A DNA stretch of 57,920 nucleotides from Patescibacteria group bacterium (GCA_018829965.1 JAHJTG010000013.1:1-57920), one strand, 5' to 3'; counted from the stretch's first letter, positions 7,792 to 53,335 are shown. Notes: generated by a model from the sequence alone, not told the origin. Numbers and translations: made by a program.

Positions 7792-8856
7792 GATTTAAGT
7801 AAGCTCAACGAAGTTTTAAAAGACGAACCGTCTTATCGTCAAAAACAGGCGCAAAAAGCTGTTTTTCAGGATTTAGCGGATAATTGGATGCAGGTACAAA
7901 CTCTACCTATTGAATTGAGAAAAGAACTGAAAAAGAGTTGTCCGCTAAAAATAGATTTTCAAGCGTCTGTTTCTCAAGACGAGAAAGTGATTAAAGGATT
8001 GATCACTCTTAAAGATGGATTGAAGGTAGAGACGGTTTTAATGAAGCATGGCGATAATCGAAATACGGTTTGCGTTTCTTCCCAAGTCGGATGCCCTTTG
8101 GGATGTGTCTTTTGCGCAACAGGGAATATCGGTTTTAAAAGAAGTCTTAGTATCTACGAAATTGTCGAGCAAGTGCTGTTTTTCGCCCGTTATTTGAAAA
8201 GCAAGGGACCTGCCCGCAGTGGCTTCGCCCGCCAGACACGCCGACTCGAGTCGCGCGGGCTGGCTACAAGCGATGCAGGCGGGGAGAGGATAACAAATGT
8301 CGTATTTATGGGAATGGGTGAGCCATTCTTGAATTACGATAATGTTCTGGGGGCGATACGGATACTAAATGATGAAGAGAGGTTTAATTTAGGCGCTCGG
8401 CATTTTTCTATCTCTACTGTCGGGATAATAGAAGGAATTGAAAAGTTTTCTCAAGAAAAACTGCAAGTTAACCTAGCTATTTCTCTGCATGCTCCGGATG
8501 ATAAATTACGGTCAGAGATTATGCCGATTAACAAAAAGTATTCTGTGAAAGAAGTATTAAAGGCAGTGGACGAGTATATAAAAAAAACAAAAAGAAGAGT
8601 AATGTTTGAATATGTTATGATAAAAGATGTAAATGATACTGATGAGTGCGCGAAAGAATTAGCAAAATTAGTAAAGAAGCCACTTTACTTCGTAAACTTA
8701 ATTTTGTACAATCCGACTGGCATTTTTAAGTCATCTGAACCCGCAAGAATTAAAAGGTTCAAAGAGATTTTAGAAAAGTATGGCGTACCGGTTACTCAAA
8801 GGTATCGTTTTGGTAAAGACCTTAAAGCTGCTTGTGGCCAGTTAGCGGGAAAATAA
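7789..8856 (+). CDS. rlmN: 23S rRNA/tRNA adenine-C2 methyltransferase (radical SAM) RlmN
   Basis: CPLGCVFCATG radical-SAM cluster and RlmN-like ends. Start moved to ATG 7789, since the track start 7762 lies in element K. Confidence 0.9.
   Translation: MDLSKLNEVLKDEPSYRQKQAQKAVFQDLADNWMQVQTLPIELRKELKKSCPLKIDFQASVSQDEKVIKGLITLKDGLKVETVLMKHGDNRNTVCVSSQVGCPLGCVFCATGNIGFKRSLSIYEIVEQVLFFARYLKSKGPARSGFARQTRRLESRGLATSDAGGERITNVVFMGMGEPFLNYDNVLGAIRILNDEERFNLGARHFSISTVGIIEGIEKFSQEKLQVNLAISLHAPDDKLRSEIMPINKKYSVKEVLKAVDEYIKKTKRRVMFEYVMIKDVNDTDECAKELAKLVKKPLYFVNLILYNPTGIFKSSEPARIKRFKEILEKYGVPVTQRYRFGKDLKAACGQLAGK
8209..8284 (+). repeat. GC-rich intragenic hairpin element, family GCI-1 (in rlmN)
   Basis: CCTGCCCGCAGTGGCTTCGCCCGCCAG...GGCTGGCTACAAGCGATGCAGGCGGGG, read through as PARSGFARQTRRLESRGLATSDAGG. 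Confidence 0.8.
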
Positions 8857-11664: not shown

Positions 11665-11725
11665 AAACGATAATCATAGTCGTAACACTAAAGGTCGTTG
11701 GCTACAAAATTAACAAACATAGAAC

Positions 11726-11843
11726 AAATCCTAAACACTAAATCCTAAATCCTAAATAAATTCAAAATAACAAATCCAAAAGGTTTTGAATTTTAAAATT
11801 TAGATTTTGAAATTGTTTAGAGTTTAGATATTAGAATTTAGGG
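11726..11843. repeat. Intergenic palindromic element family B (CCTAAATCC/GGATTTAGG words), copy 1
   Basis: AAATCCTAAACACTAAATCCTAAATCCTAAAT...centre...TTTAGAGTTTAGATATTAGAATTTAGGG. Confidence 0.75.
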
Positions 11844-11854
11844 CTTGTAATTGT

Positions 11855-12147: not shown

Positions 12148-12726
12148 ATGCACGATGCTACTTTGTGTCTTTTAATAAAACCTGCCCGCAATGCTTCGCC
12201 CGCCAGCAACGCTTCGCCCGCCAGAAACGCTGTATCTGCTGCGGACTGGCGTAGCGATGCGGGCTGGTATAGCGACGCAGGCGGGGATAACGAAATTCTT
12301 TTAGCGATGAAAAAGCGCGGTTTTGGAATGGGTAAATGGAATGGGGTGGGCGGAAAGCCGGATTTAGAAAAAGGGGATAAGACTATTATTGACACGGCTA
12401 TTAGAGAAACAGAAGAAGAAATTGGAGTTAAGCCGTCTAATTTAAAAAAGGTTGCATTATTGCGCTTTCGTTTTCCCTATGAGGAAAACTGGAATCAAGA
12501 TGTCTATGTTTTTTTAACTAATAATTGGGAAGGCGAATTAAAAGAATCAGAAGAAATGCTTCCGAAATGGTTTAAAACCAGCGAGATTCCTTATCAAGAA
12601 ATGTGGGATGATGATAAGTTTTGGTTGCCTCATATTCTGGCCGGAAAGAAATTAGAAGCCGACTTTATCTTTAAAGAAGGGGAGAAGATAGATAAGCATA
12701 CTATTAATTTTGTTTCAGAAATATGA
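12148..12726 (+). CDS. Nudix hydrolase (MutT-like)
   Basis: Nudix-box-like GGKPDLEKGDKTIIDTAIRETEEEIGV. Start moved to ATG 12148, because the track start 11998 overlaps the previous gene out of frame. Confidence 0.8.
   Translation: MHDATLCLLIKPARNASPASNASPARNAVSAADWRSDAGWYSDAGGDNEILLAMKKRGFGMGKWNGVGGKPDLEKGDKTIIDTAIRETEEEIGVKPSNLKKVALLRFRFPYEENWNQDVYVFLTNNWEGELKESEEMLPKWFKTSEIPYQEMWDDDKFWLPHILAGKKLEADFIFKEGEKIDKHTINFVSEI
12181..12286 (+). repeat. GC-rich intragenic hairpin element, family GCI-1 (in the Nudix gene)
   Basis: CCTGCCCGCAATGCTTCGCCCGCCAG...GCGACGCAGGCGGGG. Its reverse complement is near-identical to 15024-15111. Confidence 0.9.
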
Positions 12727-13274
12727 TTGATATTTATGAAGCAATAAAAAAGCGAAGAAGCGTAAGGCTTTACAAAGAGAAAAAGATAGAAAATGCTGTT
12801 TTAAACAGAATTTTAGAGGCAGCAAGGTTGGCTCCTTCAGCCAATAATGTCCAAGGATATAAGCTGATAATTGTTAAAGATAGTCAGAAAAGACAACAAC
12901 TTGCTAAGGCTGGTTTATACCAAAGCTTTATTTCCCAAGCCCCGATTATAATAGTAGGCGTGGCCGTAAATCCAGAATTAGACCAAACATCTGAAAATCC
13001 TTTTTACGCTATTGATTTAGCAATTGCTTTTGATCATTTAACGCTGGTGGCAGCAAGCGAAGGCTTAGGCACTTGCTGGATTGGCGCTTTCAAACAAGAT
13101 AAAGTTAAAAAGATTTTAGAAATTCCGGAAAAATGCAAGGTCATTGTTTTAATGCCCATTGGTTTTCCAGATGATAAGCCAAAAAACAGATCAAGGAAAA
13201 GCTTAAAAGAATTAATTTATTACGAGAAATTTTCAAATAGGATTGGACTTGGTGCTTGGGTTGATATAATATAA
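12723..13274 (+). CDS. Nitroreductase family protein
   Basis: KRRSVRLY N-terminal motif and nitroreductase-fold length/pattern. ATGA overlap with the Nudix gene. Confidence 0.8.
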   Translation: MIDIYEAIKKRRSVRLYKEKKIENAVLNRILEAARLAPSANNVQGYKLIIVKDSQKRQQLAKAGLYQSFISQAPIIIVGVAVNPELDQTSENPFYAIDLAIAFDHLTLVAASEGLGTCWIGAFKQDKVKKILEIPEKCKVIVLMPIGFPDDKPKNRSRKSLKELIYYEKFSNRIGLGAWVDII

Positions 13275-13285
13275 TAAGTGAAGTT

Positions 13286-13325
13286 ACCTGTGCCTGCCGA
13301 AAGGGAGTGTGCAGGTTTTTATTTT
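13286..13325 (+). terminator. Rho-independent terminator
   Basis: ACCTG..loop..CAGGT followed by TTTTTATTTTATT. Confidence 0.5.
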
Positions 13326-13327
13326 AT

Positions 13328-13336
13328 TGGTATAAT
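13328..13336 (+). promoter_or_regulatory. Extended -10 promoter candidate (TGgTATAAT) for the toxin-antitoxin pair
   Basis: Exact TGnTATAAT about 40 nt upstream of ATG 13379. Confidence 0.4.
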
Positions 13337-13367
13337 TATAAAAGAAGTTAAAAAACTATTGACATCG

Positions 13368-13387
13368 ATATATCATATATGATATAT
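13368..13387. promoter_or_regulatory. Perfect 20-bp palindrome ATATATCATATATGATATAT spanning the toxin start codon (candidate operator)
   Basis: The sequence is its own reverse complement. It lies between the promoter candidate and the first codons of the toxin-antitoxin operon. Confidence 0.45.
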
Positions 13388-13756
13388 AATAAAGAAGAAG
13401 AATATAAAGTAAAATTTTATAAAAGCACCAAAACCAACAAAAGTCCTGTTTTAGATTATATTGATAAATTAAATGTTAAAGAAAAAGCCAAGGTATTAAA
13501 ATATATTGAGTTTTTGAGAGTTAATAAAGGAGTTTTAGATGAACCATACTCAAAGCATATTAAAGGAAAAATTAGGGAATTAAGAGTTGATTTTTTCAAG
13601 TCAAAACACAGAATACTTTATTTTACCTTTATTAAGAGAAATATAATTTTACTTCACGCGTTTTTGAAAAAGACCGCCAAAACGCCGATAAACGAAATTA
13701 GGATAGCAGAAGAGAATTATAATAATGTTATAAATAATAACAAAATCTATGAATAA
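13379..13756 (+). CDS. RelE/ParE-superfamily toxin (Gp49/HigB-like)
   Basis: YKVKFYK..KSPVLDYI..L pattern, 125 aa, 8-nt overlap with a downstream HTH gene. Confidence 0.7.
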   Translation: MIYNKEEEYKVKFYKSTKTNKSPVLDYIDKLNVKEKAKVLKYIEFLRVNKGVLDEPYSKHIKGKIRELRVDFFKSKHRILYFTFIKRNIILLHAFLKKTAKTPINEIRIAEENYNNVINNNKIYE

Positions 13757-14039
13757 AAGTAAAAAGGCAATTGATTTTCAAGATTACCTTAAAGAACAAC
13801 TTAAGAATCCGATACTCAAAAAGCATTACGACGAATACGGTAAACAATTAGAAATTGCTTATCAGATTTTGAAACTTCGCAAACAAAAAAAGATGTCGCA
13901 AGCAGAGTTTGCTAAAAGATTAAAAACAAAACAAAGTAATGTGGCGAGAATGGAATCTGGCCAGCAAAATTTTACTACAGATACATTGCAGAAAATTGCT
14001 GATATTTTTAGTATGGATTTAAGGGTAGAATTTCAATAA
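13749..14039 (+). CDS. XRE-family HTH antitoxin
   Basis: LRKQKKMSQAEFAKRLKTKQSNVARMESG helix-turn-helix. Confidence 0.75.
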   Translation: MNKSKKAIDFQDYLKEQLKNPILKKHYDEYGKQLEIAYQILKLRKQKKMSQAEFAKRLKTKQSNVARMESGQQNFTTDTLQKIADIFSMDLRVEFQ

Positions 14040-14127
14040 CTAATACTACCCATTTGAAACATACACTGCATAAGGAAGGCAAGAAGTAGGTTCCAGAATG
14101 GTAGGTAGTTAAAAAACAATAAACATT

Positions 14128-14153
14128 AATCCGAGTCAGCGCTCGGATTTTTA
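14128..14153 (+). terminator. Rho-independent terminator
   Basis: AATCCGAG-TCAGCG-CTCGGATT followed by TTTAG. Confidence 0.6.
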
Positions 14154-14182
14154 GTTGGAAGAGGCGAAGACCTAAATTGCGC

Positions 14183-14211
14183 TTGACACTATATCTTGAC
14201 CTTGCTACAAT
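14183..14211 (+). promoter_or_regulatory. Sigma70-like promoter (TTGACA-17-TACAAT) of the Rrf2-iscS-iscU-mnmA cluster
   Basis: -35 at 14183-14188 and -10 at 14206-14211, followed by the hairpin AAAGCCGACA-AGATT-TGTCGGCTTT. Confidence 0.5.
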
Positions 14212-14264
14212 AAAAGCCGACAAGATTTGTCGGCTTTTAAATTAATTCACTCACCAAAACTTAT

Positions 14265-14660
14265 ATGCGTATATCAAAAAAATCACAATACGGCCTTCGT
14301 TCAATGGTTTATCTTGCAAAAAAATCTTCAAAAGATAACCCTTGCTCGATAAACGAAATCTCAAAAAAAGAGAATGTCCCTTTTGAGTTTCTGGGGAAAA
14401 TAATGTCTGAATTGGAAAAAGCGAATTTGGTTAAAACAAAAAAAGGAGTAAGCGGAGGATATTTTTTAGCAAAGTCGGCAAACAAAATTACGCCAGGCGA
14501 TATAGTTTTAGCATTAGAGGAAAATACCGAATTGGTTAATTGTTCTGGTTGTCCGATGGCAGGCAGCTGTTCCAGCGAAGATGTTTGGGACGAGGTTCAA
14601 GAATCAATGGACAACAGCTTGAATGCAAAAACTTTAGCAGACTTAATTAAGAGAAAATAA
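14265..14660 (+). CDS. Rrf2-family transcriptional regulator (IscR-like)
   Basis: MRISKKSQYGLRSMVYLA N-terminus and a C-terminal Cys cluster CSGCPMAGSC. Confidence 0.85.
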   Translation: MRISKKSQYGLRSMVYLAKKSSKDNPCSINEISKKENVPFEFLGKIMSELEKANLVKTKKGVSGGYFLAKSANKITPGDIVLALEENTELVNCSGCPMAGSCSSEDVWDEVQESMDNSLNAKTLADLIKRK

Positions 14661-14748
14661 TATAGAAATGGCTTCACCGTTTATATAATTAATCGTTCGG
14701 TCGGAATATATAAAAACGAGTTTTCATATATTCCTCCCTTTTTCATAA
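14661..14748 (+). repeat. Leader cassette family F, copy 4
   Basis: TATAGAAATGG..CCGTTTATATA, then ATTAATCGTTCGGTCGGAATATATAAAAAC-GAG-TTTTCATATATTCCTCCC. It ends 2 nt before ATG 14751. Confidence 0.8.
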
Positions 14749-14750
14749 TT

Positions 14751-16001
14751 ATGAAGCATGTATATTTTGATTATGCGGCGACAACGCCGGTTGATTCTCG
14801 CGTAAAAAAAGCGATGCTCCCTTATTTTTCAGAAAAATTCGGGAATACAATGTCTCTCCATAGTTTCGGCCAAGAGGCAAAATTAGTTTTAGAAAAGAGC
14901 AGGGAAACAGTGGCGGATTTAATTAGAGCTAAACCTGAAGAAATAATTTTTACCGGTTCGGCAACCGAAAGCAATAATTTGGCGTTAAAAGGCATAGCAT
15001 TTGCGAATCAGAATAAGGGGCATACCCGCCTGCATCGCTATGCCAGCCCGCATCGCTACGCCAGTCCGCAGCAGATACAGCGTTTCTGGCGGGCGAAGCG
15101 TTGCGGGCAGGTAATAATTTCTCCGATTGAACATCCTTGTATTATTGAAACTGCAAAATGGCTGCAAAAGCAGGGTTTTCAGATAACAAAACTAAAGGTT
15201 GATAAATACGGAATGGTTAATCCTTTAGCTCTTGAAAAAGAAATTAGGAAAGATACTATTTTAGTTTCTGTGATTCACGCCTCAAATGAAATCGGCACAA
15301 TCCAACCGATAGAAAAAATTGGAAAGATCTGTCGCAACAAGGGAGTATATTTCCACACAGATGCTGTTCAAAGCTTTGGAAAAATCCCCATTGATGTAAA
15401 TAAGATGAACATAGATTTGCTGACTGCAAGCTCTCATAAGATGTATGGTCCCAAGGGAGCTGCTTGTTTGTATATAAGAGAGGGTGTAAGAATAGAGCCG
15501 ATTTTGCACGGTGGAGGCCAAGAAAGAGGATTAAGGTCTTCAACTGTGAATATTCCTGCAATTGTCGGTTTTGCCAAGGCTTGTGAAATCTGCAAGAAGG
15601 AAATGGGGAAAGAAGCTCAAAGGTTGATTAAATTAAGAGATAAATTAATAAGGAATGTTTTAAAGATAAAAGGCAGTTATTTAAACGGTCATCCTCAAAA
15701 AAGATTGCCGAATAATGCTAATTTCCGTTTTGATTTCATAGAAGGGGAATCAATAATTTTACGATTGGATCTGCTCGGAATAGCTGTCTCAACCGGTTCT
15801 GCTTGTTCTTCAATAAAATTAGAGCCAAGTTCTGTTCTTTTAGCAACAGGCTTGAAGCCGGCAGAAGCTCATGGTTCTTTGCGCATTTCTTTGGGTCGCT
15901 GGACTACGGAAAAAGAAATCGATTATTTAATAAAAGTTTTGCCGGGAATAATAAATCAATTAAGAAAAATTTCACCGTTTAAGGTTATAAAATCCGCATA
16001 A
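14751..16001 (+). CDS. iscS: Cysteine desulfurase (IscS/NifS type)
   Basis: PLP-lysine motif SSHKMYGPKG and catalytic loop GSACSS. It contains a ~29-aa insert. Confidence 0.9.
   Translation: MKHVYFDYAATTPVDSRVKKAMLPYFSEKFGNTMSLHSFGQEAKLVLEKSRETVADLIRAKPEEIIFTGSATESNNLALKGIAFANQNKGHTRLHRYASPHRYASPQQIQRFWRAKRCGQVIISPIEHPCIIETAKWLQKQGFQITKLKVDKYGMVNPLALEKEIRKDTILVSVIHASNEIGTIQPIEKIGKICRNKGVYFHTDAVQSFGKIPIDVNKMNIDLLTASSHKMYGPKGAACLYIREGVRIEPILHGGGQERGLRSSTVNIPAIVGFAKACEICKKEMGKEAQRLIKLRDKLIRNVLKIKGSYLNGHPQKRLPNNANFRFDFIEGESIILRLDLLGIAVSTGSACSSIKLEPSSVLLATGLKPAEAHGSLRISLGRWTTEKEIDYLIKVLPGIINQLRKISPFKVIKSA
15024..15111 (-). repeat. GC-rich intragenic hairpin element, family GCI-1 (in iscS, inverted orientation)
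   Basis: ACCCGCCTGCATCGCTATGCCAGCCCGCATCGCTACGCCAGTCCGCAGCAGATACAGCGTTTCTGGCGGGCGAAGCGTTGCGGGCAGG is the reverse complement of the Nudix copy minus one 18-nt unit. Confidence 0.9.
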
Positions 16002-16495: not shown

Positions 16496-17690
16496 AGAGA
16501 ATAAACCCCGCATCAGAACATTCGGTTCAGTACGGGGAAAGAAAGTAATAGTGGCGATGTCGGGAGGTGTTGATTCAAGCGTGGCGGCGGCTCTGTTGAA
16601 AAGAGATGGTTTTGATGTTGTTGGTGTACATCTCAAATTTTGGTCAGAAGGTAAGAGTAGCGCAGAAAATAGGTGTTGCACATTAGAGAGCGAAAAAAGA
16701 GCGAGAATAGTTGCCAAAAAATTAAATATTCCTTTTTATGTTTTTAACTTTGAAAAAGAATTTAAAAGAAAAGTAGTCGGGTATTTTTTAAAAGAATATA
16801 GGGCTGGCAGAACACCTAATCCATGTGTTGTTTGTAATAAAGAAATTAAATTCGGTTTATTGATAGAAAAAGCATTAAAATTAGGTGAGGATTTTGTGGC
16901 CACGGGACACTACGCCCGCCTCGGGCGGGAAATCCCAAATCCCAAATCTCAAACCCCAAACAAACCCAAAACCCAAAACCCAAAACCTATAAAACTTTTT
17001 AAAGCCAAAGATGAGAATAAAGACCAGTCGTATTTTTTATGGCAATTAAATCAAAGGCAATTAAATAGAGTTTTATTTCCCATAGGCAATTATACTAAGC
17101 CTCAAGTTCGCGCTTTGGCTAAAAAGTTTAAATTACCGGTTGCCGAGACCCCGGAATCTCAAGAGGTTTGTTTTATCAAGAATAAGACAAATGATTTTCT
17201 CAAAAAATATATTAAAATAAAAATAGGTGAGATAAGGGATAAACAAGGTAGGTTGTTAGGTGAGCATCAAGGTTTATGTTTTTATACTATCGGTCAAAGA
17301 AAAGGAATCGGTTTACCCGGCGGTCCATATTATGTTTTAGATAAAGATATTAAAAAGAACATTTTAGTTGTTACGCAGGACGAAAAAGATCTATTAAGGA
17401 AAGATTTGATTGTTGGAAATGTAAACTGGATTTCTGGTAAAAAACCCCGCCTTCGCGAAGGCTATAGCGGGCAGGCGAAAATGCCGATTAAAGTAATGGC
17501 GAAGATAAGGTATAGGAATAAAGGCGCGTCAGCTGTCATTAAAAAAGCCGCCGTAGGCGAGCCTCGCCAAGGGCGGGAAAACAGAAAGATAAAAGTAATT
17601 TTTTCAAAGCCGCAGAGAGCAATCACTTCAGGCCAGTCAGCGGTCTTTTACCGAGGAGGCGAATTGCTGGGAGGTGGAGTAATAGAATAA
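16485..17690 (+). CDS. mnmA: tRNA 2-thiouridine(34) synthase MnmA
   Basis: PP-loop VAMSGGVDSSV plus CCTLE, TGHYAR and KDQSYFL motifs. It carries three repeat-derived inserts. Confidence 0.9.
   Translation: MINKENKPRIRTFGSVRGKKVIVAMSGGVDSSVAAALLKRDGFDVVGVHLKFWSEGKSSAENRCCTLESEKRARIVAKKLNIPFYVFNFEKEFKRKVVGYFLKEYRAGRTPNPCVVCNKEIKFGLLIEKALKLGEDFVATGHYARLGREIPNPKSQTPNKPKTQNPKPIKLFKAKDENKDQSYFLWQLNQRQLNRVLFPIGNYTKPQVRALAKKFKLPVAETPESQEVCFIKNKTNDFLKKYIKIKIGEIRDKQGRLLGEHQGLCFYTIGQRKGIGLPGGPYYVLDKDIKKNILVVTQDEKDLLRKDLIVGNVNWISGKKPRLREGYSGQAKMPIKVMAKIRYRNKGASAVIKKAAVGEPRQGRENRKIKVIFSKPQRAITSGQSAVFYRGGELLGGGVIE
16913..16990 (+). repeat. Composite in-frame insert in mnmA: GC hairpin plus family-B-like CCCAAA(T/A)C tract
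   Basis: CCCGCC-TCG-GGCGGG, then AAATCCCAAATCCCAAATCTCAAACCCCAAACAAACCCAAAACCCAAAACCCAAAACC, translated GREIPNPKSQTPNKPKTQNPKP between HYAR and KLFKAKDENKDQSYFL. Confidence 0.8.
17445..17475 (+). repeat. Short GC element family GCI-3 (in mnmA)
   Basis: CCCCGCCTTCGCGAAGGCTATAGCGGGCAGG. Related to 28046-28075 and 47874-47900. Confidence 0.65.
17547..17577 (+). repeat. Short GC element family GCI-4 (in mnmA)
   Basis: GCCGCCGTAGGCGAGCCTCGCCAAGGGCGGG. It shares GGCGAG-S-CTCGCC...GGGCGG with the rplF insert. Confidence 0.6.
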
Positions 17691-19073: not shown

Positions 19074-19913
19074 TTTTTAAGAAAAGCCCTAAGACACAAT
19101 TTTTGTAATTTAGTAGACAAGGTAGCAATTATAACCGGAGCCAAGCAGGGGATGGGGAAAGCCCATGCTTTAAAATTAGCTAAAGCGGGAGCTAATGTAG
19201 TAGTTTCTGATATCTCTCAAGAGGAATGCCAAATTGTTGTAGATGAAATAAAAAAAGCCGGCGGTAAGGCCATAGCAGTAAAATGCGATATAAGCAATAA
19301 AACAGAAGTTGAGCAATTAGTTAAAAAAACAGTTGAAACTTTTGGTAAATTAGATATTTTAGTAAATAACGCTGGTATTTGTCCCTTCAAGCCATTTTTA
19401 GAAATGACCGAGGAAGAATTCAGCAAGGTGATAGATATAAACCTTAAGGGATACTTTTTATGCGCCCAAACAGCAGCCAAAGAAATGTCCCGACCCCGAC
19501 CTGTCGTGGGTCGCGGATCCTCGACGGCTTCGCCGTCGGGAGCAAAATCTGGCGGAGCGATTGTTAATATCGCTTCAATTGCAATGGGGCAGGTGGGAGT
19601 TGGGTTTCAGGGTTTAACGCATTATTGCGCTTCAAAGGGCGGTATTGTAGCTATGGCAGAAGCAATGTCTTTAGAGCTGGCCCCGCTTGGCATAAGAGTA
19701 AACACAATTGCTCCGGGAGCGATTGATACTCCGATGGCGGCTTCAGTAAAGCAGGATATGAAAACCTTAGAAGCGACCTTATCGGGTATTCCTTTGGGCA
19801 GAATGGGCAATCCAGAAGAAATTTCCAACGCAGTTCTATTTTTAGCTTCAGATGAGTCTTCATATATTACAGGTTCAGTTGTTGTAGTTGATGGAGGTTG
19901 GCTTGCCGGTTAA
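19071..19913 (+). CDS. Short-chain dehydrogenase/reductase (FabG-like)
   Basis: TGAKQGMG, NNAG and YCASKGG motifs. Start moved to ATG 19071. It carries a ~19-aa GC insert. Confidence 0.85.
   Translation: MFLRKALRHNFCNLVDKVAIITGAKQGMGKAHALKLAKAGANVVVSDISQEECQIVVDEIKKAGGKAIAVKCDISNKTEVEQLVKKTVETFGKLDILVNNAGICPFKPFLEMTEEEFSKVIDINLKGYFLCAQTAAKEMSRPRPVVGRGSSTASPSGAKSGGAIVNIASIAMGQVGVGFQGLTHYCASKGGIVAMAEAMSLELAPLGIRVNTIAPGAIDTPMAASVKQDMKTLEATLSGIPLGRMGNPEEISNAVLFLASDESSYITGSVVVVDGGWLAG
19487..19543 (+). repeat. GC-rich intragenic element family GCI-2 (in the SDR gene)
   Basis: GTCCCGACCCCGACCTGTCGTGGGTCGCGGATCCTCGACGGCTTCGCCGTCGGGAGC (57 nt = 19 codons), with hairpin CGACGGC-TTC-GCCGTCG. Confidence 0.75.
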
Positions 19914-19960: not shown

Positions 19961-19996
19961 TAAAAAACATAATCAAGGTCGAGCTCTTAAAATAAA

Positions 19997-20061
19997 CCTT
20001 ACGAATTACAAATCAAACCGAATTACGAATTCGTAATTCGAAAATATTCGTAATTCGTAGG
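19997..20061. repeat. Intergenic palindromic element family D (ACGAATTACGAAT / ATTCGTAATTCG), copy 1
   Basis: CCTTACGAATTACAAATCAAACCGAATTACGAATTCGTAATTCGAAAATATTCGTAATTCGTAGG. Confidence 0.8.
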
Positions 20062-20074
20062 AAATTAGGAAATT

Positions 20075-21168: not shown

Positions 21169-21173
21169 ACTAA

Positions 21174-21310
21174 AATTCTAAGCACTAAACTCTAAATCCT
21201 AAACAAATTCAAATGTTTCAAATTCCAAATTCCAAACGACGACGGGTTTGTGATTTATAGTATTGTGATTTGGGATTTATTTAGAATTTAGAAATTAGGA
21301 TTTAGAATTT
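21174..21310. repeat. Intergenic palindromic element family B, copy 2
   Basis: TTCTAAGCACTAAACTCTAAATCCTAAAC...TTTAGAATTTAGAAATTAGGATTTAGAATTTC. It ends 4 nt before ATG 21315. Confidence 0.75.
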
Positions 21311-21314
21311 CATT

Positions 21315-22385
21315 ATGAAGGATATTAATTTTCCGATATTCAAAACAAAAAGCGATACATACAAAAAATTTGACTTAACCAATTTTGACCAAAGACAGGC
21401 GTATTTTGAATACAAGACAGGAGAAGAAATAAAAAAACTTAGAGAATATTTAAAGAAGAATACTTTTGTGGTTTACCTTTTAGGGAAAAAAGGTTCTGGG
21501 AAAGGGACTTATTCAAAAATGCTGAAAGAGGTGATTGCTCCGGATAAAATAGCCCATTTTTCTATTGGAGATATGGTGAGGTCCTTTGATGAAATTATAG
21601 GAGATGAAAAGAAAAAAAAAGAATTAATTTCTTTCTTGGAAAAAGAATACAGGGGATTTGTGCCGTTACAGGATATAATCAAATCATTAGAAAATAGAAG
21701 CACGAAAACTCTTTTGCCGACTGAATTAATTTTGGCATTGGTAAAAAGAGAAATTCAAAAATTGGGCAAGAAAGCAATTTTTATTGACGGATTTCCGAGA
21801 GACCTAGATCAGATTTCCTACTCCCTATTTTTTAGAGATTTGATAGGATATAGAGATGACCAGGATATTTTTGTGCTTATTGATGTTCCGACTTCGGTTA
21901 TTGACGAAAGGATAAAATTTAGAGTAATTTGCCCTCTTTGCCAAACTTCAAGAAGCTTGAAGCTTTTGCCTACAAAAAAAGTTGAATACGACAAGGAAAA
22001 TAAAAAGTTTTATCTCGTCTGCGACAATCCTGATTGCAGCGGGGCAAAAATGGTTACGAAAGAGGGAGATGAATTAGGGATAGGACCGATTAAAGAAAGG
22101 TTAAGCAAGGACGAAATTTTAATAAAACAGGCATTTTCATTAAACGGAATACCAAAAATTCTTTTAAGAAATTCTATTCCAATTGATAAAGCAAAAGAAT
22201 TTGTTGACGATTATGAAATTACTCCGGAATATTGCTATGCTTTTAATGAAAAAGAAGACAAAGTTGAAGTAATAGAAAAGCCATGGCAGGTCTTAAATGA
22301 TGAAGGGGTTGCTTCAAACAGCTTAATGCCTCCACCGGTAGTAGTTTCTTTAATAAAGCAATTAGTAAAAATTCTTAATATTTAA
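21315..22385 (+). CDS. Long adenylate-kinase-like NMP kinase paralog with a zinc-knuckle lid
   Basis: P-loop LLGKKGSGKGT plus CPLC...CDNPDC. 356 aa, against the canonical adk at 55878. Confidence 0.55.
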   Translation: MKDINFPIFKTKSDTYKKFDLTNFDQRQAYFEYKTGEEIKKLREYLKKNTFVVYLLGKKGSGKGTYSKMLKEVIAPDKIAHFSIGDMVRSFDEIIGDEKKKKELISFLEKEYRGFVPLQDIIKSLENRSTKTLLPTELILALVKREIQKLGKKAIFIDGFPRDLDQISYSLFFRDLIGYRDDQDIFVLIDVPTSVIDERIKFRVICPLCQTSRSLKLLPTKKVEYDKENKKFYLVCDNPDCSGAKMVTKEGDELGIGPIKERLSKDEILIKQAFSLNGIPKILLRNSIPIDKAKEFVDDYEITPEYCYAFNEKEDKVEVIEKPWQVLNDEGVASNSLMPPPVVVSLIKQLVKILNI

Positions 22386-22636: not shown

Positions 22637-22808
22637 CAACACCCGGTGTTGTTAAATCAATTAAATCAACACCCGGTGTTGAACACCCGTGTTGTATAAA
22701 ATATTTGTAAAAAAGTACACAAAAGTAAAACAATAAAACAATTAGAACACTTCGCATTAACGGAACACTAACGGAACACCCGGTGTTCCGTTAATAAACG
22801 GTGTTCTA
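22637..22808 (+). repeat. REP-like cluster (left of the RAYT gene)
   Basis: CAACACCCGGTGTTG at 22637 and 22667, CGGAACACCCGGTGTTCCG at 22782, and degenerate half-sites between them. Confidence 0.85.
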
Positions 22809-22820: not shown

Positions 22821-23546
22821 ATGCCTTCAAGAGAAGTTCAATTTTATCCAGGAGAATTTTATCATATTTATAATCGTGGCAACGCAAAGCAGGATATTTT
22901 TTATAATGACAGGGATAGATATAGATTTCTTCAAGCAATGTATTTATCAAATAATAGCGATTGTTCTGTTCGGCTAATGGAATTAGAAAAAAATAAAAGC
23001 GGATATACCCTTGCCGATATAAAAAAAGTTTTTAATGAAGGAAAAATTTCTTATAATCCATTGGTTAGAATAAGCGCTGATGTTTTAATGCCTAATCATT
23101 TTCATTTGCTGATTGAGGAACTGCAAGAGAAGGGGATCAGTCGTTTTATGCAGAGGTTGGGAGATAGTTACGGGAAATATTTTACTATAAAATATGATCG
23201 TCCGGGCAGTTTGTTCCAGGGTCGTTTTAAGGCAGTTCATATAAAAAATGACGATCAACTTAGATATTTATTGGCTTATATTAATGCGATAAACCCGGCG
23301 CAATTAATAGAACCAAAAATTAAAGAAAAAGGTATTGAGGATTTCCAAAAAATATTAGAAGGAATAAATAAATATTCATGGGGTACTCATTTTGAATATA
23401 TGGGCAAGAGAGAATCTGCTATTATTGATAAAGGATTATTGGGAAAAATTTTTTCAACTCCAGAAATTTATTACGAATTTATCAAAGAAATTTTACATGG
23501 GAAAGAAGATATGTGGAGCCCCATAGAAGGATTAATGCTTGATTGA
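22821..23546 (+). CDS. IS200/IS605-like HUH Y1 transposase, REP-associated tyrosine transposase (RAYT)-like
   Basis: HUH motif LMPNHFHLLIEE, Tyr motif LAYINAINPA, N-terminal FYHIYNRGN. Confidence 0.75.
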   Translation: MPSREVQFYPGEFYHIYNRGNAKQDIFYNDRDRYRFLQAMYLSNNSDCSVRLMELEKNKSGYTLADIKKVFNEGKISYNPLVRISADVLMPNHFHLLIEELQEKGISRFMQRLGDSYGKYFTIKYDRPGSLFQGRFKAVHIKNDDQLRYLLAYINAINPAQLIEPKIKEKGIEDFQKILEGINKYSWGTHFEYMGKRESAIIDKGLLGKIFSTPEIYYEFIKEILHGKEDMWSPIEGLMLD

Positions 23547-23554: not shown

Positions 23555-23670
23555 GGTGTTTCAACACCCGGTGTTGAACACCAGGGAATCAACACCCGGT
23601 GTTGATTGAACGCCCCTCAACACCCGAAACGCTCAACACGAATACTCAACACCCGGTGTTGAACACCCGA
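23555..23670 (+). repeat. REP-like cluster (right of the RAYT gene)
   Basis: TCAACACCCGGTGTTGA at 23561, 23589 and 23646, plus half-sites CAACACCCGAAAC and GAACACCCGAAAA. Confidence 0.85.
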
Positions 23671-23796
23671 AAATTTATAACCGGTACCAATTTTTTTAAC
23701 AAAATACTTGGCTTGACAGAGATTTTTATGGTAAAATATATTAATTATAAGCATATTTTGGGATTAAGAACTCCCAGAAGTTTTATTGCATAAAAA

Positions 23797-26700
23797 ATGT
23801 TGTGGCAGATGAAAAATAAAACAAGCGGGTTTCGTAAATCTGGCTTGTGGAACACCCGGTGTTCCACAAGTGGTAAATCCGCCAGGCTAAAATCTTTTTT
23901 GAGTTCGCTATTAAACGGGATTATAATCGCCGGTATTTTTTCATTTATCTTTTACGCTTTTGCCGCGCCACCCGATAGTCCCTATAATCCAGGAGAAATT
24001 CTTAATCCCAGTTGTGCGCCGGGGGATGCTTATTGTACAGTGCTTACGCCAGCAATTTCTGGTAATAATACTGACATCACCGGCCTAAGAGGACTGAATA
24101 CTCAAGAAGCAATTAAAATTTCGCCTTTTGGAACTTCAACAGGTGAAACAGGAGAAATTAGATTTTTGGAATTATCTGCCGGTGGAACTAATTATATTGG
24201 CTTTAAATCTTCGGATAGTTTAACTGCTAATGTTATTTGGGTTTTGCCGGATGCAGACGGAAGTACAAGTCAAGCTTTAATAACCAATGGCTCAGGTAGT
24301 TTAAGTTGGGGAGACGTTCAAGCTTACGATGCTGATTTAACAACTTACGCGGGAATAACTCCAAGCGCTAATATTCAATCATTTCTTGGTTCAGCCGACT
24401 ATGCTACTGCAAGAACTAATCTCGGAGTTGCTATTGGAAGCAATGTTCAAGCTTACGAAGCAACACTTACAGGGCTCGCTAGCATGCCAGCTACTGTAGG
24501 TTTTGTGAAACAGACAGCAGAAAATGTATTTGGAATAGATGAGAGCGTTTATCTCACTGCTGAAACCGACCCTGTTGTGAAAGCCCTTACTGGCATAATT
24601 AAATCTGATGGTTCTACAATATCCGCAATTACCGACAATTCTTCTAATTGGGACGCGGGATATACTTATCGTCTCATTTCTGCCAGCGGAACTTCTCCTT
24701 TAACCTTAACTTTAGCGAGCAATGGATTAACAGGGAGCATAGCCGATGCTACCGCTTCAACAAAAGGAATTGCATCGTTCAATTCCACAAACTTTTCTGT
24801 AGCTTCTGGCGCGGTAAATACGATACAGGATATAGCGACAACTTCTAGCCCTACTTTTGCAGGACTGACTTTAAGCGCCGCAAACATTGTAACCGACACG
24901 ACAACAGGAACAAAAATAGGAACAGCAACTGACCAGAAGCTCGGGTTTTTCAACGCTACTCCTGTTATTCAGCCGACAAGCACCACTGAACTAAGACAAG
25001 CTTTAATTGATCTGGGGTTATACGCTTCAGGCGGAGCAACTCCGCTTAATTTAAATGGCGGGGCGTTTACCACCACAGGCACTCTCGGAGCAGGGGCGAT
25101 AACAGGGACTTCTCTGAGTGCTGGTTCTGGAACACTTACCGCGGGGATAGGAACATTAACAAGCCTTAATCTTACGGCAGATACCAATCAGATAGTTTTA
25201 GATTCCGATGGGACATATACCACTACCCTTACAGGTGGTGCAACTGGTTCATCTAAAATTATTACTTTTCCCGATATTACTGGGACCGTTGCCCTTACTA
25301 CAGGAGCAGGTGGTTTATCTTCTTATCTACCACTTGTAGGTGGCACTATGGCAGGAGATATTTTACTTACGGGAACAGTAAATCTTGGTGCTACTGGAAG
25401 CCGTTTTACTAATATATGGGGAACGACCATAACAGGGACTTCTCTTACCGACGGCACAGCAACTTTATCAGGGGGAAACCTAACTGGTATGGGTGATATT
25501 ACAGGAACGGATATTGACTTATCTTTAGGCACTGGTGATATTTTAACCTCTGGGACTTTAGGTGCAGGGGCTACTACTTTAACAGGTGATTTGATTGTAG
25601 ACGAACATAGCGTTTATATAAATAGTGCTTTGGGGGACGAAATTGCACCTGCACTTGAAGCCGCTAATTGGACTTTAGGTGCTATGTGGTCAGCAGGAGC
25701 AGGACAATTAGTAAGAACTTTCATTTATCCCGCATCAAGCACAGCAACCCCGTCAGGAACTTTTACGATTACAGCAGGTCATCTTTATAAAGTTACAATT
25801 ACCGCCTCTGCAGTTAGCGGAACAATTACTTATACGCTTGGTGGTGTGTCGGGAACGGCTATCACAGCAACGACAATTACAGATTATATAACAGCCACAA
25901 CTACTGGTAAGATAATCTTTACAGGTGCACCATCGGCTACTTGCACGATAACTTCTGTAAGTGTTAAAGAGGTTACTACTGATGGTGATTTGACGGTTCA
26001 GGGAGATGCGTCTATTTGGGGTGATTTGACAATTACGGGCACGGTTCTAGATGTAGCGAAAATTGAGAGAGCTTATATAGGAACATCTGGTTATGACTTG
26101 CCGTCAGCTACAAGTTATTTCACAGTAGCACATGAAGGTTCTGGATTTATTAAAATGGCTGGTTTTACAAACGTTGCGGAAAGTGGCACTGCTATTCGTG
26201 CTATGAGAGGACGAGGAACGATAGCATCTCCAGCAGTTGTCGCTGAGAATGATAGAATGTTTGCGTTTCAAGCGGGTGCTTTGGATTCCGACCTTGCCGA
26301 GAACTTTCCCGCACAAATGGCTTTTTATGTTGATGGTGCTGTTAGTGCTGGGAATATCCCCACAAGGTTTTCTATCAGCACAGGATATTCAGCAGGAACA
26401 AGAACAGAATATTTAATAGTAAAATCATCAGGTGATGTATGGTTGCCCGTAGATGACCAAGAATTATTATTTGGCACGGCACACGACTTTGGAATAACCT
26501 TTAACGGAAGTGGTGGTGTAATTCAATCTGATTTAGTAACCGCAACCGACTACTTACAACTGCGTGGCGGGACAAATGGGATAGATTTTAATATAGGGGC
26601 AACGGAACAGATAAGTTTAATTGATGGTGTATTGCAACCCACAACTACAAATGATATAGATTTAGGAACTTCCTCGTTGCTTTACAAAGATATTTGGGAA

Positions 26701-31448: not shown

Positions 31449-31500
31449 CGGTGTTCAACACCCGGTGTTGCGGAGTGGTGCGTTCAACACCCGGTGTTGC
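31449..31500 (+). repeat. REP-like pair
   Basis: CAACACCCGGTGTTG at 31456 and 31485, both preceded by GTGTT/GCGTT. Confidence 0.85.
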
Positions 31501-35744: not shown

Positions 35745-35821
35745 CCGCAACACTGACTCCGCAACACCGGGTGTTGAACACATTGAACACAATGTCCGGG
35801 TGTGGAACACCGGGTGTTCCA
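35745..35821 (-). repeat. REP-like cluster, inverted orientation (AACACCGGGTGTT)
   Basis: GCAACACCGGGTGTTGA at 35761, TGGAACACCGGGTGTTCCA at 35803, with degenerate copies between them. Confidence 0.85.
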
Positions 35822-36393: not shown

Positions 36394-36400
36394 ATACACC

Positions 36401-43032: not shown

Positions 43033-43035
43033 TTT

Positions 43036-45634: not shown

Positions 45635-46093
45635 ATGAAATTATCAGATATTTTTAAAAAGAAAATAAAAAAACAGAAAAAAACAGAGGTTAAAGAAATT
45701 GAAACAATTGCGGAGAAGAAACCTGTCCACAATGCTCCCGCCCCAACTTCAAAGATGTTGGCGGATGCAGGCGGGGAAGCTCCAAAAAGAGAAACTGTGA
45801 AGCGCAAGAAAAGCGTAGCTACTGTCTATAACATTGTTTCAGAGCCGCATATTTCAGAAAAATCAATGGGTTTGAATGAAATTAACCAGTACATATTTGA
45901 TGTTTTTCCAAAAGCTAATAAGGTTCAGATAAAAGAGGCGATAGAAATAATTTATGGAGTAGATGTTTTATCAGTAAATATAATTAATATCGCGCCAAAG
46001 AAAAGAAGATTAGGAAAAATTCAGGGTTTTAAAAAAGGATACAAAAAGGCAATAGTAAAAGTGAAGGCTGGACAAAAAATAGAGATTTTATAA
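45635..46093 (+). CDS. rplW: 50S ribosomal protein L23 with a ~55-aa N-terminal extension
   Basis: The core IFDVFPKANKVQIKEAIEIIYGV is preceded by a K/E-rich extension. Confidence 0.85.
   Translation: MKLSDIFKKKIKKQKKTEVKEIETIAEKKPVHNAPAPTSKMLADAGGEAPKRETVKRKKSVATVYNIVSEPHISEKSMGLNEINQYIFDVFPKANKVQIKEAIEIIYGVDVLSVNIINIAPKKRRLGKIQGFKKGYKKAIVKVKAGQKIEIL
45722..45776 (+). repeat. Degenerate GCI-1 copy inside the rplW extension
   Basis: CCTGTCCACAATGCTCCCGCC...GGCGGATGCAGGCGGGG (compare CCTGCCCGCAATGCTTCGCCCGCC...GCGATGCAGGCGGGG). Confidence 0.6.
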
Positions 46094-52897: not shown

Positions 52898-53335
52898 ATG
52901 AGTATAAAAAGTCAAAAAAGGCAAAGACGCCATAAAAAGATAAGAGCAAGAATAAAAGGCACGGCTAAAAGGCCGAGACTTTGTGTTTTTAAGTCCTCAC
53001 AACATATTTATGCTCAATTGATAGATGATGATAAAAATAATGTTATAGTCTTAGTTAGCGATTTTGATGTCAAGAAATCTTCAAAACAGAGTCCTGCCCG
53101 CATTGCTACGCCAGCCCGCATTGCTACGCAAAGCGTTGCAGGCGGGCAAAGCGTTGCTGGCGTGGTAAAGCGAGGGAATAAAGAAAATAATTCCTTTGAA
53201 GTAGGTAAGTTAATAGCAGAAAAAGCTAAAGAATTAAAAATTACAGAAGTAGTTTTTGACCGCGGAGGTTTTGTATTCCACGGGAGGATAAAAGCAGTTG
53301 CTGATGGAGCTAGAGAAGGCGGACTTAAGTTTTAA
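52898..53335 (+). CDS. rplR: 50S ribosomal protein L18 (with a ~25-aa insert)
   Basis: RRHKKIRARIKGT and FDRGGFVFHGRIKAVADGAREGGLKF. Confidence 0.92.
   Translation: MSIKSQKRQRRHKKIRARIKGTAKRPRLCVFKSSQHIYAQLIDDDKNNVIVLVSDFDVKKSSKQSPARIATPARIATQSVAGGQSVAGVVKRGNKENNSFEVGKLIAEKAKELKITEVVFDRGGFVFHGRIKAVADGAREGGLKF
53093..53166 (+). repeat. GC-rich intragenic hairpin element, family GCI-1 (in rplR)
   Basis: CCTGCCCGCATTGCTACGCCAGCCCGCATTGCTACGCAAAGCGTTGCAGGCGGGCAAAGCGTTGCTGGCGTGG, translated PARIATPARIATQSVAGGQSVAGV. Confidence 0.8.

Follow-up and report, generated by a model that had tools for sequence, protein, structure and literature searches.

Rickettsia palindromic elements (RPEs) measure about 100-150 bp, fall into ten families and have been regarded as peculiar to Rickettsia (Ogata et al. 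2000, 2002, summarised in PMC10969869). In REP sequences and REPINs, one end carries a conserved tetranucleotide, GTAG or CGTC (PMC3733652). MITEs, including the intragenic ERIC, Correia/NEMIS, Nezha and QMITE, are 50-500 bp long, end in terminal inverted repeats, are flanked by target-site duplications and seldom lie inside genes (PMC10969869, PMC2759123).

Here we describe a 36-nt GC-rich hairpin from a stretch of 57,920 nt of a small-genome bacterium of the Patescibacteria (CPR) group, hereafter the window, in which five protein genes (rlmN, an MTH1-like Nudix gene, iscS, rplW and rplR) carry in-frame inserts, the one in iscS being reversed. The original prediction had proposed five copies of an RPE-like mobile hairpin, and all five were located to within about one base (Table 1). 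The core of every insert is the 36-nt unit CCTGCCCGCAnTGCTnCGCAnAGCGnTGCAGGCGGG, and the longer forms are nested copies of it. With a GC content of 61-64% (~63%) against ~35% for the window, the copies are its main GC islands. A left-arm pattern (up to 3 mismatches) matches 8 times in the window compared to 0.03 expected, and a pattern joining both element ends matches 3 times with 0 expected. As proposed, the Nudix and iscS copies match each other in reverse complement, over 90 nt at 94% identity (12199-12288 and 15022-15111), while a second arm of 34 nt at 94% (12180-12213 and 15079-15112) explains the one extra 18-nt unit reported in the Nudix copy. As claimed, the host frame passes through all five copies without a stop codon, and a search of the window with a profile of the unit detected no additional copies, genic or intergenic.

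Table 1. Copies of the 36-nt element and the RAYT-type gene in the window
Feature	Position	Strand	Form	Encoded peptide or flanks
rlmN copy	8209..8283	+	75 nt; 39-nt outer variant plus 36-nt inner unit; phase 0	PARSGFARQTRRLESRGLATSDAGG
Nudix copy (MTH1-like gene)	12181..12285	+	105 nt; three nested layers of 36 + 36 + 33 nt; phase 0	PARNASPASNASPARNAVSAADWRSDAGWYSDAGG
iscS (cysteine desulfurase) copy	15025..15111	-	87 nt; reverse orientation	TRLHRYASPHRYASPQQIQRFWRAKRCGQ
Y1_Tnp gene (IS200-like, RAYT-type)	22821-23546			flanked by CAACACCCGGTGTTG, not by the 36-nt unit
rplW (L23) copy	45722..45775	+	degenerate; in N-terminal extension; phase 0	...MLADAGG
rplR (L18) copy	53093..53164	+	72 nt; two nested 36-mers; phase 0	PARIATPARIATQSVAGGQSVAGV

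The inserts interrupt conserved sequence, as had been proposed. Pfam identifies the host proteins as radical SAM/RlmN, NUDIX, Aminotran_5, L23 and L18. For Aminotran_5 and L18 the match is broken into two stretches, and the insert divides the alignment of L18 to PDB 3j3v as well. The Nudix insert lies at the beta1-beta2 turn: the Pfam match begins downstream of it, and the alignment to human MTH1 begins at query residue 50, directly past it. In L23 the Pfam domain begins only at residue 67. For IscS and RlmN, neighbouring residues of the PDB homologs align on either side of the insert (IscS residues 4-91 to residues 2-89 of 4r5f and 120-410 to 90-379; RlmN to residues 38-167 and 166-357 of 6fz6). 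In the AlphaFold model of IscS the insert (pLDDT 40-59, flanks 81-87) is placed between a confident helix and a confident strand, in line with the surface loop that had been expected.

An ancestral peptide at these sites would have overturned the original prediction. Only 2 of 121 IscS orthologs have the element, that of the window and a distant one. When orthologs are ordered by similarity to one of the two, the other comes 119th of 120, and the closest relatives of both lack the insert. On this ortholog comparison, the inserts were acquired and are not ancestral. Removal of exactly 87 nt from iscS joins CAT to ATA ATA ATT (H-I-I-I) and regains the ortholog consensus (H-IIIS). The target-site duplication typical of MITEs is absent from the iscS, rlmN and Nudix junctions, and flank profiles are without repeated bases. 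The only flank preference, among the matches listed at low-GC loci, is an A at -1 in ~60% of copies, with T depleted. A filled and empty site pair in near-identical genomes was not found, and no transposition event was directly observed.

In nested forms the unit is divided precisely into 18 and 18 nt. We found nine cases in which removal of the inner 36-mer leaves a canonical outer 36-mer with 0-2 mismatches, and insertion of the unit into the centre of existing copies explains the nested forms of 72-105 nt. In rplR (nhmmer E = 5e-12), the inner 36-mer (53111-53146) has 1 mismatch to the consensus and the outer 36-mer left after its removal has 2. In the iscS copy an outer 36-mer encloses inner layers from which one left 18-nt unit is missing. 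The inner unit of the rlmN copy has the termini CCCGCCAG...GCGGGCTGG, and the 39-nt outer form of this copy is found again in other genomes. The rplW insert, already described as degenerate, retains the termini CCTGtCCaCA...TGCAGGCGGG and is weakly supported (nhmmer E = 6.4 and 28 for its two ends); we read it, with that reservation, as a putative decaying copy.

The long hairpin proposed for the arms is real, with uneven statistical support from RNA folding alone (z-scores of -4.1 for Nudix, at -58.9 kcal/mol, -2.9 for L18, -2.6 for iscS, -1.4 for rlmN and -1.2 for L23). Its form has to be revised: covariation supports two alternative offset hairpins as the conserved fold, rather than the obvious palindrome. 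All six of the highest-ranking mutual-information pairs are Watson-Crick; together they outline two mutually exclusive hairpins, nt 5-36 and nt 1-32, with covariation scores of 0.182 and 0.207 compared to 0.08-0.09 when shuffled (0 of 500 shuffles as high), whereas the plain palindrome scores below its own shuffles. One offset hairpin is the minimum-energy fold of the top-strand DNA (89% of the ensemble). The conserved mismatches of the unit are T15.T27 or A10.A22.

The 36-mer is distributed far beyond the window, with nearly identical copies in many other bacteria known only from uncultured material. Public sequence scans, in which copy counts are matches listed and lineage and copy totals are lower bounds, found it nearly invariant in at least 15 named Patescibacteria lineages and also in GC-rich contigs labelled PVC. 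Hundreds of records contain it; they stem from many different projects and assemblers, and some are contigs of 0.7-1.2 Mb. With only the middle fixed in the search, exact 5' CCTGCCC is found in 102 and exact 3' AGGCGGG in 93 of the 121 matches listed. In other genomes the unit lies in unrelated genes and in intergenic DNA, in both orientations, which bears out the mobile, RPE-like hairpin of the original prediction. In-frame hosts include synthetases (ValRS/IleRS-type, AlaRS, GluRS, AspRS-type), ribonucleotide reductase, CTP synthase, IF-2, Mur ligases, GyrA, ThiI, ATP synthase gamma, thioredoxin reductase, ribosomal protein S9 and a UvrD-family helicase-nuclease. No match to the element was found in Rfam, PLSDB plasmids or GenBank phages. 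Its near-invariance over very distant lineages, unlike ordinary REP or MITE families, is odd for decaying junk and counts against the mobile-element reading. Other hairpin families, also read in frame, are present in the same genome as the window; these, the 36-nt nesting, the near-invariance far beyond this genome and the offset hairpins had not been foreseen.

Such conservation could mean that the 36-mer is a nucleic-acid motif under selection for a benefit to the host (a protein binding site, a processing signal, or an mRNA-stabilising or terminator-like hairpin) whose presence in genes is a side effect of genome compactness. Variation is confined to four positions, always with compensation, and same-site copies in orthologous genes are 94-100% identical compared to 58-77% for their flanks, including at would-be synonymous positions. 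This identity and the near-invariance call for either repeated fresh insertion at preferred sites or a constraint on the nucleotide sequence. Most copies in the PVC-labelled contigs are outside long ORFs, and those compared with ORF coordinates follow directly after stop codons, as REP-like stabilisers or terminators do; among the matches listed, 15% of GC-rich copies are on the tip of a longer flanking stem compared to 2% expected. Nonetheless, a beneficial motif fits poorly with patchy presence in close orthologs, with distinct sequence variants occurring together in single genomes, with degenerate copies such as that of L23, and with intergenic copies that show no orientation preference toward transcription (21 same and 18 opposite to neighbouring genes). 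It is not obvious how a host would profit from insertions in essential enzymes, and a partner protein is not known. We therefore consider a host-beneficial motif unlikely.

Among the matches listed at low-GC loci, 72 of 120 copies (60%) are inside ORFs and 48 outside any ORF of at least 120 codons. The element is always open in four frames, and 57 of the 72 intragenic copies (79%) are read in forward phase 0 as a PARNASHSDAGG-type loop (p = 8e-22), with 89% sharing one orientation. Length is filtered as well: copies of non-multiple-of-three length are never found in ORFs (0 of 12, compared to 23 of 60 with multiple-of-three length; p = 0.007). Because intergenic copies are unbiased, the orientation bias in genes reflects selection on the peptide and not an insertion bias. 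The original prediction had left undecided whether the inserts are tolerated as loops or removed; the frame bias, the multiple-of-three rule and the unbiased intergenic copies favour translated, selection-filtered inserts, translation itself being inferred without RNA or peptide data.

Removal after transcription or translation, as an intron, bulge-helix-bulge intron, bypass element or intein, would leave mature proteins without the inserts. The strong hairpin joins both flanks, the geometry used by such removal systems, and there is a precedent in yeast mitochondria, whose GC clusters and byp elements are likewise short, GC-rich, palindromic and mobile and lie within protein genes in a strongly AT-rich setting. 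The ribosome skips byp elements, which are therefore free to break the frame, whereas the present element keeps frame and length strictly. Removal would impose neither the length rule nor the phase and orientation biases described above; moreover, no window host frame contains a stop codon, Rfam has no match, and the 12-35 insert residues are without intein motifs. Judged without RNA or protein data, the element does not fit these classes, and we regard removal as very unlikely. That the inserts are ordinary lineage-specific low-complexity insertions or assembly artefacts with incidental DNA similarity can be dismissed: the peptides are indeed low-complexity Ala/Gly/Ser/Pro stretches and all data come from metagenome assemblies, but opposite-strand copies encoding unrelated peptides match at 94%, the 36-mer recurs across projects, assemblers and very long contigs, and artefacts are not expected to nest or covary.

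How does the element compare with the known families? We rate the element as RPE/REP-like, Rickettsia-RPE-like selfish DNA, and found no description of it in the literature searched. Like RPEs, it is palindromic, lies in frame in diverse housekeeping genes of an AT-rich, reduced genome with the added peptide tolerated by the fold, and has intergenic copies too; in-frame palindromic insertion into protein genes is shown by the five window copies and by the intragenic share of the low-GC listed matches. The present element differs in being nearly invariant across Patescibacteria, GC-rich in an AT-rich host and able to grow by nesting. It fails the RPE length (a 36-nt unit, with longer forms nested; no sequence comparison with an RPE consensus was made) and the RPE host range of Rickettsia and relatives, its hosts being Patescibacteria and the GC-rich PVC-labelled contigs.

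REP/REPIN sequences are similar in being imperfect GC-rich palindromes of 20-40 nt, a criterion the 36-nt unit meets, with a conserved mismatch, a short single-stranded tail beside the stem and no target duplication, and in being intergenic in large genomes, often after stop codons. The window also has a RAYT-type gene, which is bordered by palindromes of its own. However, the tetranucleotide tag is absent, the tail being CCTG or CGGG according to the termini counted above, and extragenic location fails, with 5 of 5 window copies and ~60% of the low-GC listed copies being genic. The element is not lineage-specific, and it forms two overlapping alternative hairpins where REP/REPIN form one hairpin or an inverted doublet. 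A REPtron, i.e. a RAYT gene flanked by the same palindromes, was ruled out for every RAYT-type gene examined: the homologs at three other loci (L088, L065 and L265) each have different palindromes of their own on either side. Intragenic MITEs are likewise small and non-autonomous with occasional in-frame fusions, but the present element is only 36 nt long, mostly intragenic in Patescibacteria and without duplication. PATE, derived from IS200/IS605, insert 3' of a fixed target of 4-5 nt, leave no duplication and have hairpins at both ends; for the present element, no duplication is seen, there are two offset hairpins, and the flank signal is limited to the A at -1 with T depleted. In the ~1.7 Mb of flanking DNA examined, no TnpA lies beside any copy and no RAYT-type gene or TnpA is flanked by the 36-nt unit. 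The enzyme that suggests itself, by inference only, is a transposase of the HUH/tyrosine type (IS200 or RAYT-like); none was identified.

We put at about 0.7 the probability that the inserts stem from a tiny mobile DNA element, non-autonomous, whose copies are filtered by selection and translated, not spliced out. The 36-nt hairpin would enter DNA without duplicating its target and would also insert at the exact centre of existing copies; being 12 codons long, the unit never shifts the reading frame. Selection would retain only harmless copies, those of multiple-of-three length in loops or termini of host proteins, in the orientation and phase giving a small hydrophilic Pro/Ala/Ser/Gly loop, PAR[N/I]A[S/T/A][H/Q]S[D/V/A]AGG. 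Retained inserts would be transcribed and then translated as extra loops, without splicing. The element's own constraint may act on a folded single strand, an inferred intermediate, with both offset hairpins kept through compensatory changes, which point to recognition of that strand by a trans-acting enzyme. Of this account, the data show the insertion, the nesting, the broad distribution, the filtering by frame and length and the covariation; translation, the single-stranded hairpin intermediate and the type of enzyme are inferences.

More tentatively, and on balance doubtfully, an as yet unrecognised machinery may be spreading or maintaining this one hairpin, with its sequence almost unchanged, throughout the Patescibacteria radiation and in PVC bacteria. 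Such machinery would read two alternative offset hairpins, insert without target duplication, and prefer hairpin tips and a few re-used genic sites. If this is true, minimal mobile elements of a new class would be remodelling the essential proteins of ultra-small bacteria, ribosomal proteins among them, and the hairpin might serve as a tracer of DNA passing between episymbionts and hosts.

The window has a GC content of about 35% and nearly all its long ORFs lie on the + strand. A scan for GC islands (40-nt stretches with at least 62% GC) picked the same five GC-rich sites that the original prediction had named, inside rlmN, the Nudix gene, iscS, rplW and rplR (Table). The left-arm pattern of the inserted element matches the window 8 times with up to three mismatches, compared to 0.03 expected. 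As proposed, the Nudix copy matches the reverse complement of the iscS copy, with 94% identity over 90 nt, and the Nudix copy has one extra 18-nt unit, as shown by a second 34-nt arm with a 94% match. The host frame is read through all copies without a stop, and Pfam confirms the identity of the host genes, with the Aminotran_5 and L18 matches each in two pieces. A profile built from 109 distinct units recovers just these five sites and no intergenic copy in the window, as had been claimed. With the sites found again, the frames open, the hosts identified by Pfam and the profile search in agreement, the observation therefore stands.

Table. Hairpins, GC-rich islands and related genes in the window.
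Feature	Positions	Strand	Remarks
Copy in rlmN	8209-8283		39-nt outer variant + 36 nt
Copy in Nudix gene	12181-12285		36 + 36 + 33 nt
Copy in iscS	15025-15111		36 nt + inner layers missing one left 18-nt unit
Copy in rplW (L23)	45722-45775
Copy in rplR (L18)	53093-53164		36 + 36 nt
Long AT-rich hairpins	11720-11850, 21173-21333, 43033-43175, 49595-49705, 54461-54592		Arms of tandem 7-mers, (AAATCCT)n/(AGGATTT)n
Arm of the same family in mnmA	16928-17003		In frame
Intergenic hairpins	45553-45620, 48084-48151, 49360-49427, 49949-50016		Arms (TAGGGTW)n/(AACCCTR)n
Intergenic hairpins	19990-20070, 48805-48945, 51658-51762		Arms (CGAATTA)n/(TAATTCG)n
GC-rich islands in mnmA	17446-17475, 17537-17589		In frame, different sequences
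GC-rich island in SDR gene	19462-19564		In frame, different sequence
GC-rich island in rplF	52327-52388		In frame, different sequence
IS200-like Y1 transposase gene	22821-23546	+	PF01797, 27.8 bits; HUH motif NHFHLL
Palindromic repeats flanking Y1 gene	22638-22705, 23561-23685		CAACACCCGGTGTTG
Further copies, scattered between genes	31455-31494, 35761-35800, 36362-36401, 38668-38713		CAACACCCGGTGTTG
1448-residue ORF	23797-28143	+
PEPEPEPEP tract at its end	28002-28109		GC island

To describe the element beyond the window, we used a pattern tying both of its ends, which matched at least 120 loci with one genome per species. This pattern replaced a first left-arm DNA pattern with 17 specified bases, for which most matches were chance hits to GC-rich phage contigs. 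Most of the matches listed have the form of a 36-nt unit (36-mer), CCTGCCCGCA-n-TGCT-n-CGCA-n-AGCG-n-TGCAGGCGGG, and the longer forms (72, 69, 52 nt and others) contain it. In a second scan, run on a metagenome collection and giving at least 121 matches, only the middle of the unit was fixed and the ends were left free. Among the 121 matches listed, 102 have the exact CCTGCCC 5′ end and 93 the exact AGGCGGG 3′ end, while about 6 look like chance. The ends are thus conserved even where the scan does not constrain them, meaning that the whole 36-mer is conserved; free variation is limited to positions 11, 16, 21 and 26. When 36-mers were found, cut out and the sequence searched again, removal of the inner 36-mer regenerated a canonical outer 36-mer (0-2 mismatches), split exactly into 18 and 18 nt, in nine cases among the matches listed, one of them the L18 copy of the window.

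The conserved fold of the 36-mer is not the obvious palindrome. In the 109 distinct units, the six pairs with the highest mutual information (16-26, 11-21, 3-30, 12-20, 7-34 and 12-30) are all Watson-Crick and define two mutually exclusive hairpins. Hairpin A pairs positions 5-9 with 32-36 and 12-19 with 23-30, with a T.T mismatch and a loop of 3 nt, and leaves a 5′ tail of 4 nt; hairpin B mirrors it, pairing 1-5 with 28-32 and 7-14 with 18-25 and leaving a 3′ tail of 4 nt. Their covariation scores (0.182 for A and 0.207 for B, compared to 0.08-0.09 for shuffled alignments) were reached by none of 500 shuffles and far exceed slid controls, whereas the plain 16-bp palindrome scores 0.065, under its own shuffles. 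Folded with DNA parameters, the top strand adopts hairpin A (-12.5 kcal/mol), which makes up 89% of the ensemble. A caveat is that these sequences were gathered by consensus similarity, with search patterns that prescribed some of the positions. Neither scan constrained positions 11, 16, 21 and 26, whereas positions 3, 7, 12, 20, 30 and 34 were each fixed in one, their variation coming from the other scan and from inner nested layers.

Next, we asked whether the segments are inserted or ancestral. The best 120 relatives of the window IscS share 72-76% identity with it (local BLASTP), those with a named source being Patescibacteria, and most have 381-393 residues and lack the segment. Among the 121 aligned proteins, the only carriers are the window IscS and one ortholog (P0012), both at the same nucleotide position, which supports insertion. 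The window DNA reads ...GGG CAT A[87 nt]TA ATA ATT... at the junction, and excising exactly CCCGCCTGCA...TGCGGGCAGG gives CAT ATA ATA ATT, that is H-I-I-I, the ortholog consensus, with no duplication of target bases. In the alignment with Archaeoglobus IscS2 (4r5f), residues 4-91 and 120-410 of the protein correspond to its residues 2-89 and 90-379; as residues 89 and 90 are adjacent, the insert falls between neighbouring residues. Likewise, residues 38-167 and 166-357 of 6fz6 align on either side of the RlmN insert, and the alignment of L18 to a solved structure is split in the same way. The inserts of these three proteins do, as suggested from the sequence alone, interrupt family-conserved protein. 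The insert of the MTH1-like Nudix protein occupies the first beta turn. For IscS, an AlphaFold model based on the 121 sequences (mean pLDDT 79.9) places the insert between a helix and a strand, with a pLDDT of 40-59 compared to 81-87 for the flanks; it was used in place of a model from a 22-sequence alignment, which was too poor (mean pLDDT 50).

Two fates had been considered for such inserts: translation as a tolerated loop, or removal from the mRNA or the protein. We addressed this question with 206 distinct canonical copies with flanks among the matches listed, 120 of which come from loci with at most 46% GC. Of these low-GC copies, 57 sit forward and in phase 0 within an ORF of 120 or more codons, 15 occupy another frame and 48 fall outside long ORFs. 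Although every copy has four of its six frames open, a single frame accounts for 57 of the 72 listed intragenic copies (p = 8e-22 against one in four) and a single orientation for 64 of the 72. Length is filtered as well: among the matches listed, none of the 12 copies with a length that is not a multiple of three is found in an ORF, compared to 23 of the 60 copies with a length that is (p = 0.007). Intergenic copies listed show no orientation preference relative to the neighbouring genes (21 same, 18 opposite), and the intragenic bias is therefore a filter on the encoded peptide rather than an insertion bias. This finding also speaks against excision from RNA or protein and leaves the translated loop as the favoured option. 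Translated directly, the unit reads PAR[N/I]A[S/T/A][H/Q]S[D/V/A]AGG in the favoured frame and hydrophobic or Cys-containing peptides in the remaining ones. Hosts identified by Pfam in the sample include ValRS/IleRS-type, AlaRS, GluRS and AspRS-type synthetases, ribonucleotide reductase, CTP synthase, IF-2, Mur ligases, GyrA, a second IscS site, ThiI, ATP synthase gamma, thioredoxin reductase, S9 and a UvrD-family helicase-nuclease.

A simple 'junk' picture leaves two facts unexplained, the re-use of sites and the identity of same-site copies. Ranked by similarity to the window protein, the IscS ortholog sharing the insert comes only 119th of 120, the nearest relatives of both are without insert, and two more orthologs have a different palindromic insert in the same loop. 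Same-site copies in orthologous genes (IscS, ribonucleotide reductase and S9, the last in three genomes) are 94-100% identical, compared to 58-77% for the 180-nt flanks. Either new copies repeatedly arrive at a small number of sites that are tolerated or preferred, or a constraint acts on the nucleotide sequence as such. Homogenisation within a genome is unlikely, because different variants coexist in one genome. We found no target-site duplication and no strong target motif; the flanks show only a preference for A and a depletion of T at position -1. In GC-rich loci, 15% of copies occupy the tip of a longer stem formed by the flanks, compared to 2% expected, which, together with the nesting, hints that hairpin tips are preferred sites.

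According to record titles, the 36-mer is found in at least 15 candidate phyla of Patescibacteria, including Saccharibacteria, Daviesbacteria, Nomurabacteria, Roizmanbacteria, Gottesmanbacteria, Levybacteria, Berkelbacteria, Portnoybacteria, Magasanikbacteria, Staskawiczbacteria and Moranbacteria. GC-rich carriers (54-62% GC) are titled Kiritimatiellia, Lentisphaerae, Verrucomicrobia and Chthoniobacterales, by label only. These loci labelled PVC encode glycogen phosphorylase, a Na+/H+ exchanger, a PolX-type polymerase and a type II/IV secretion ATPase, and most of their copies are outside any long ORF; in six of the loci, the copies checked against ORF coordinates lie between ORFs, in three of these six starting 33-93 nt past a stop codon. 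Public taxon names look wrong for two other records and such labels are unreliable. We reject a Gammaproteobacteria origin for CAZKCV010000003.1, whose ValRS is 85% identical to a Daviesbacteria protein, and a Bdellovibrionales origin for CAYMRZ010000094.1, which shares 73% DNA identity over 308 nt with a Parcubacteria locus. A few predicted viral contigs (L005, L015, L009 and L146 from IMG/VR, 51-64% GC) carry the element as itself or nested. In four loci (L062, L070 and L097 from the GC-rich genome of Kiritimatiellia SO_2017_LW3_126, and L178), the 36-mer lies within a larger repeat of 200-300 bp, the copies of this repeat being 84-94% identical with conserved flanks (ttattctgacta before and ctgact... 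after the 36-mer).

The 36-mer has no match in the 72,556 plasmids of PLSDB or in 50,697 GenBank phage records. At gathering thresholds Rfam has no match to the whole window, and a permissive search gives only chance-level miRNA and Plasmodium RUF6 matches. For proteins, a word-index search with the 41-residue Nudix insert region gave one candidate and nothing at E <= 10, and an exhaustive phmmer search with a 35-residue insert against 1.84 billion representatives gave no match at E <= 0.001. Short, biased peptide queries cannot be detected in this way, so the census relies on the DNA scans.

Other hairpins are present in the window. The (AAATCCT)n hairpins (fold z between -3.3 and -5.2) are intergenic, some of them within the ribosomal protein cluster, and one arm of this family lies in frame in mnmA (EIPNPKSQTPNKPKTQNPKP), where the alignment to structure 9hln has a gap of 15 residues. 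The (CGAATTA)n hairpins reach a fold z of about -6.5. Growth by addition of units to both arms seems to be a general habit of hairpins in this genome. Two further gaps, of about 10 residues, appear when MnmA is aligned to 9hln, and one of 17 residues when the short-chain dehydrogenase is aligned to 2uvd. The first mnmA island, with termini CCCGCCT...GCGGGCAGG, may be a short relative of the 36-mer; its profile match is not significant.

Close Patescibacteria orthologs of IscS carry other short inserts at other sites, several visibly palindromic in DNA (P0005, P0012, P0075, P0104, P0110, P0010, P0020, P0028, P0066, P0069, P0073 and P0118). Examples are IYPHTK...YGVGV near the N-terminus of five proteins, PSFGRLKRPSEGQG, REARLPAR, GPPCREA and YPVKSSKGGSPKAKFNGV. 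Insertion of hairpins in frame thus looks widespread among Patescibacteria.

These analyses demonstrate that the unit is inserted, repeated and nested, that its folded form is conserved, and that copies within genes are filtered by frame and length. By inference, the folded single strand would be the form that moves, recognised by an enzyme acting in trans, and surviving copies would be translated as extra surface loops. The Y1 gene of the window is not supported as the mobiliser: flanked on both sides by CAACACCCGGTGTTG palindromes, it is a RAYT-type gene of the classical kind, accompanied by a REP family of its own that differs from the 36-mer. Three Y1 homologs elsewhere have, in the same way, their own different palindromes beside them. 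Just downstream of the window Y1 gene lies a long ORF with abundant Thr/Gly/Ser repeats and, at its end, a Cys-rich region and the PEPEPEPEP tract. We found no larger autonomous element around the copies, only the composite repeats of 200-300 bp in one Kiritimatiellia genome, and nothing obvious among the ORFs enclosed by inverted copy pairs (L168 and L171).

Rickettsia palindromic elements (RPEs) are palindromic elements of about 150 bp in ten families, and nearly half of the R. conorii copies are fused in frame to genes (PMC10969869). The 36-mer works alike, but falls outside the RPE family by size and by host. It resembles REP elements in size, conserved mismatch, absence of target duplication and location in large genomes, and differs from them in lacking a GTAG or CGTC tag, RAYT linkage, extragenic position and lineage specificity. 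In the literature searched, the 36-mer sequence is found nowhere, and the best-ranked papers never pair RPEs with these phyla. The most far-reaching reading, that of a novel, minimal mobile element common to several phyla, is still possible.

In-frame 'protein-coding palindromes' have so far been viewed as a Rickettsia curiosity; here they are found with a far smaller unit and on a much wider scale in Patescibacteria, one of the largest bacterial radiations. The well-defined substrate (36 nt, two competing hairpins, four free positions) offers a handle on the moving enzyme. Given its near-identity across very distant bacteria, the element may mark gene flow, and it already exposes mislabelled MAGs, such as the Daviesbacteria contig labelled Gammaproteobacteria. 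Finally, the element would account for some of the short insertions in CPR proteins that so far lack an explanation; such insertions affect alignments and phylogenies as well as structure prediction and CPR ribosome models.
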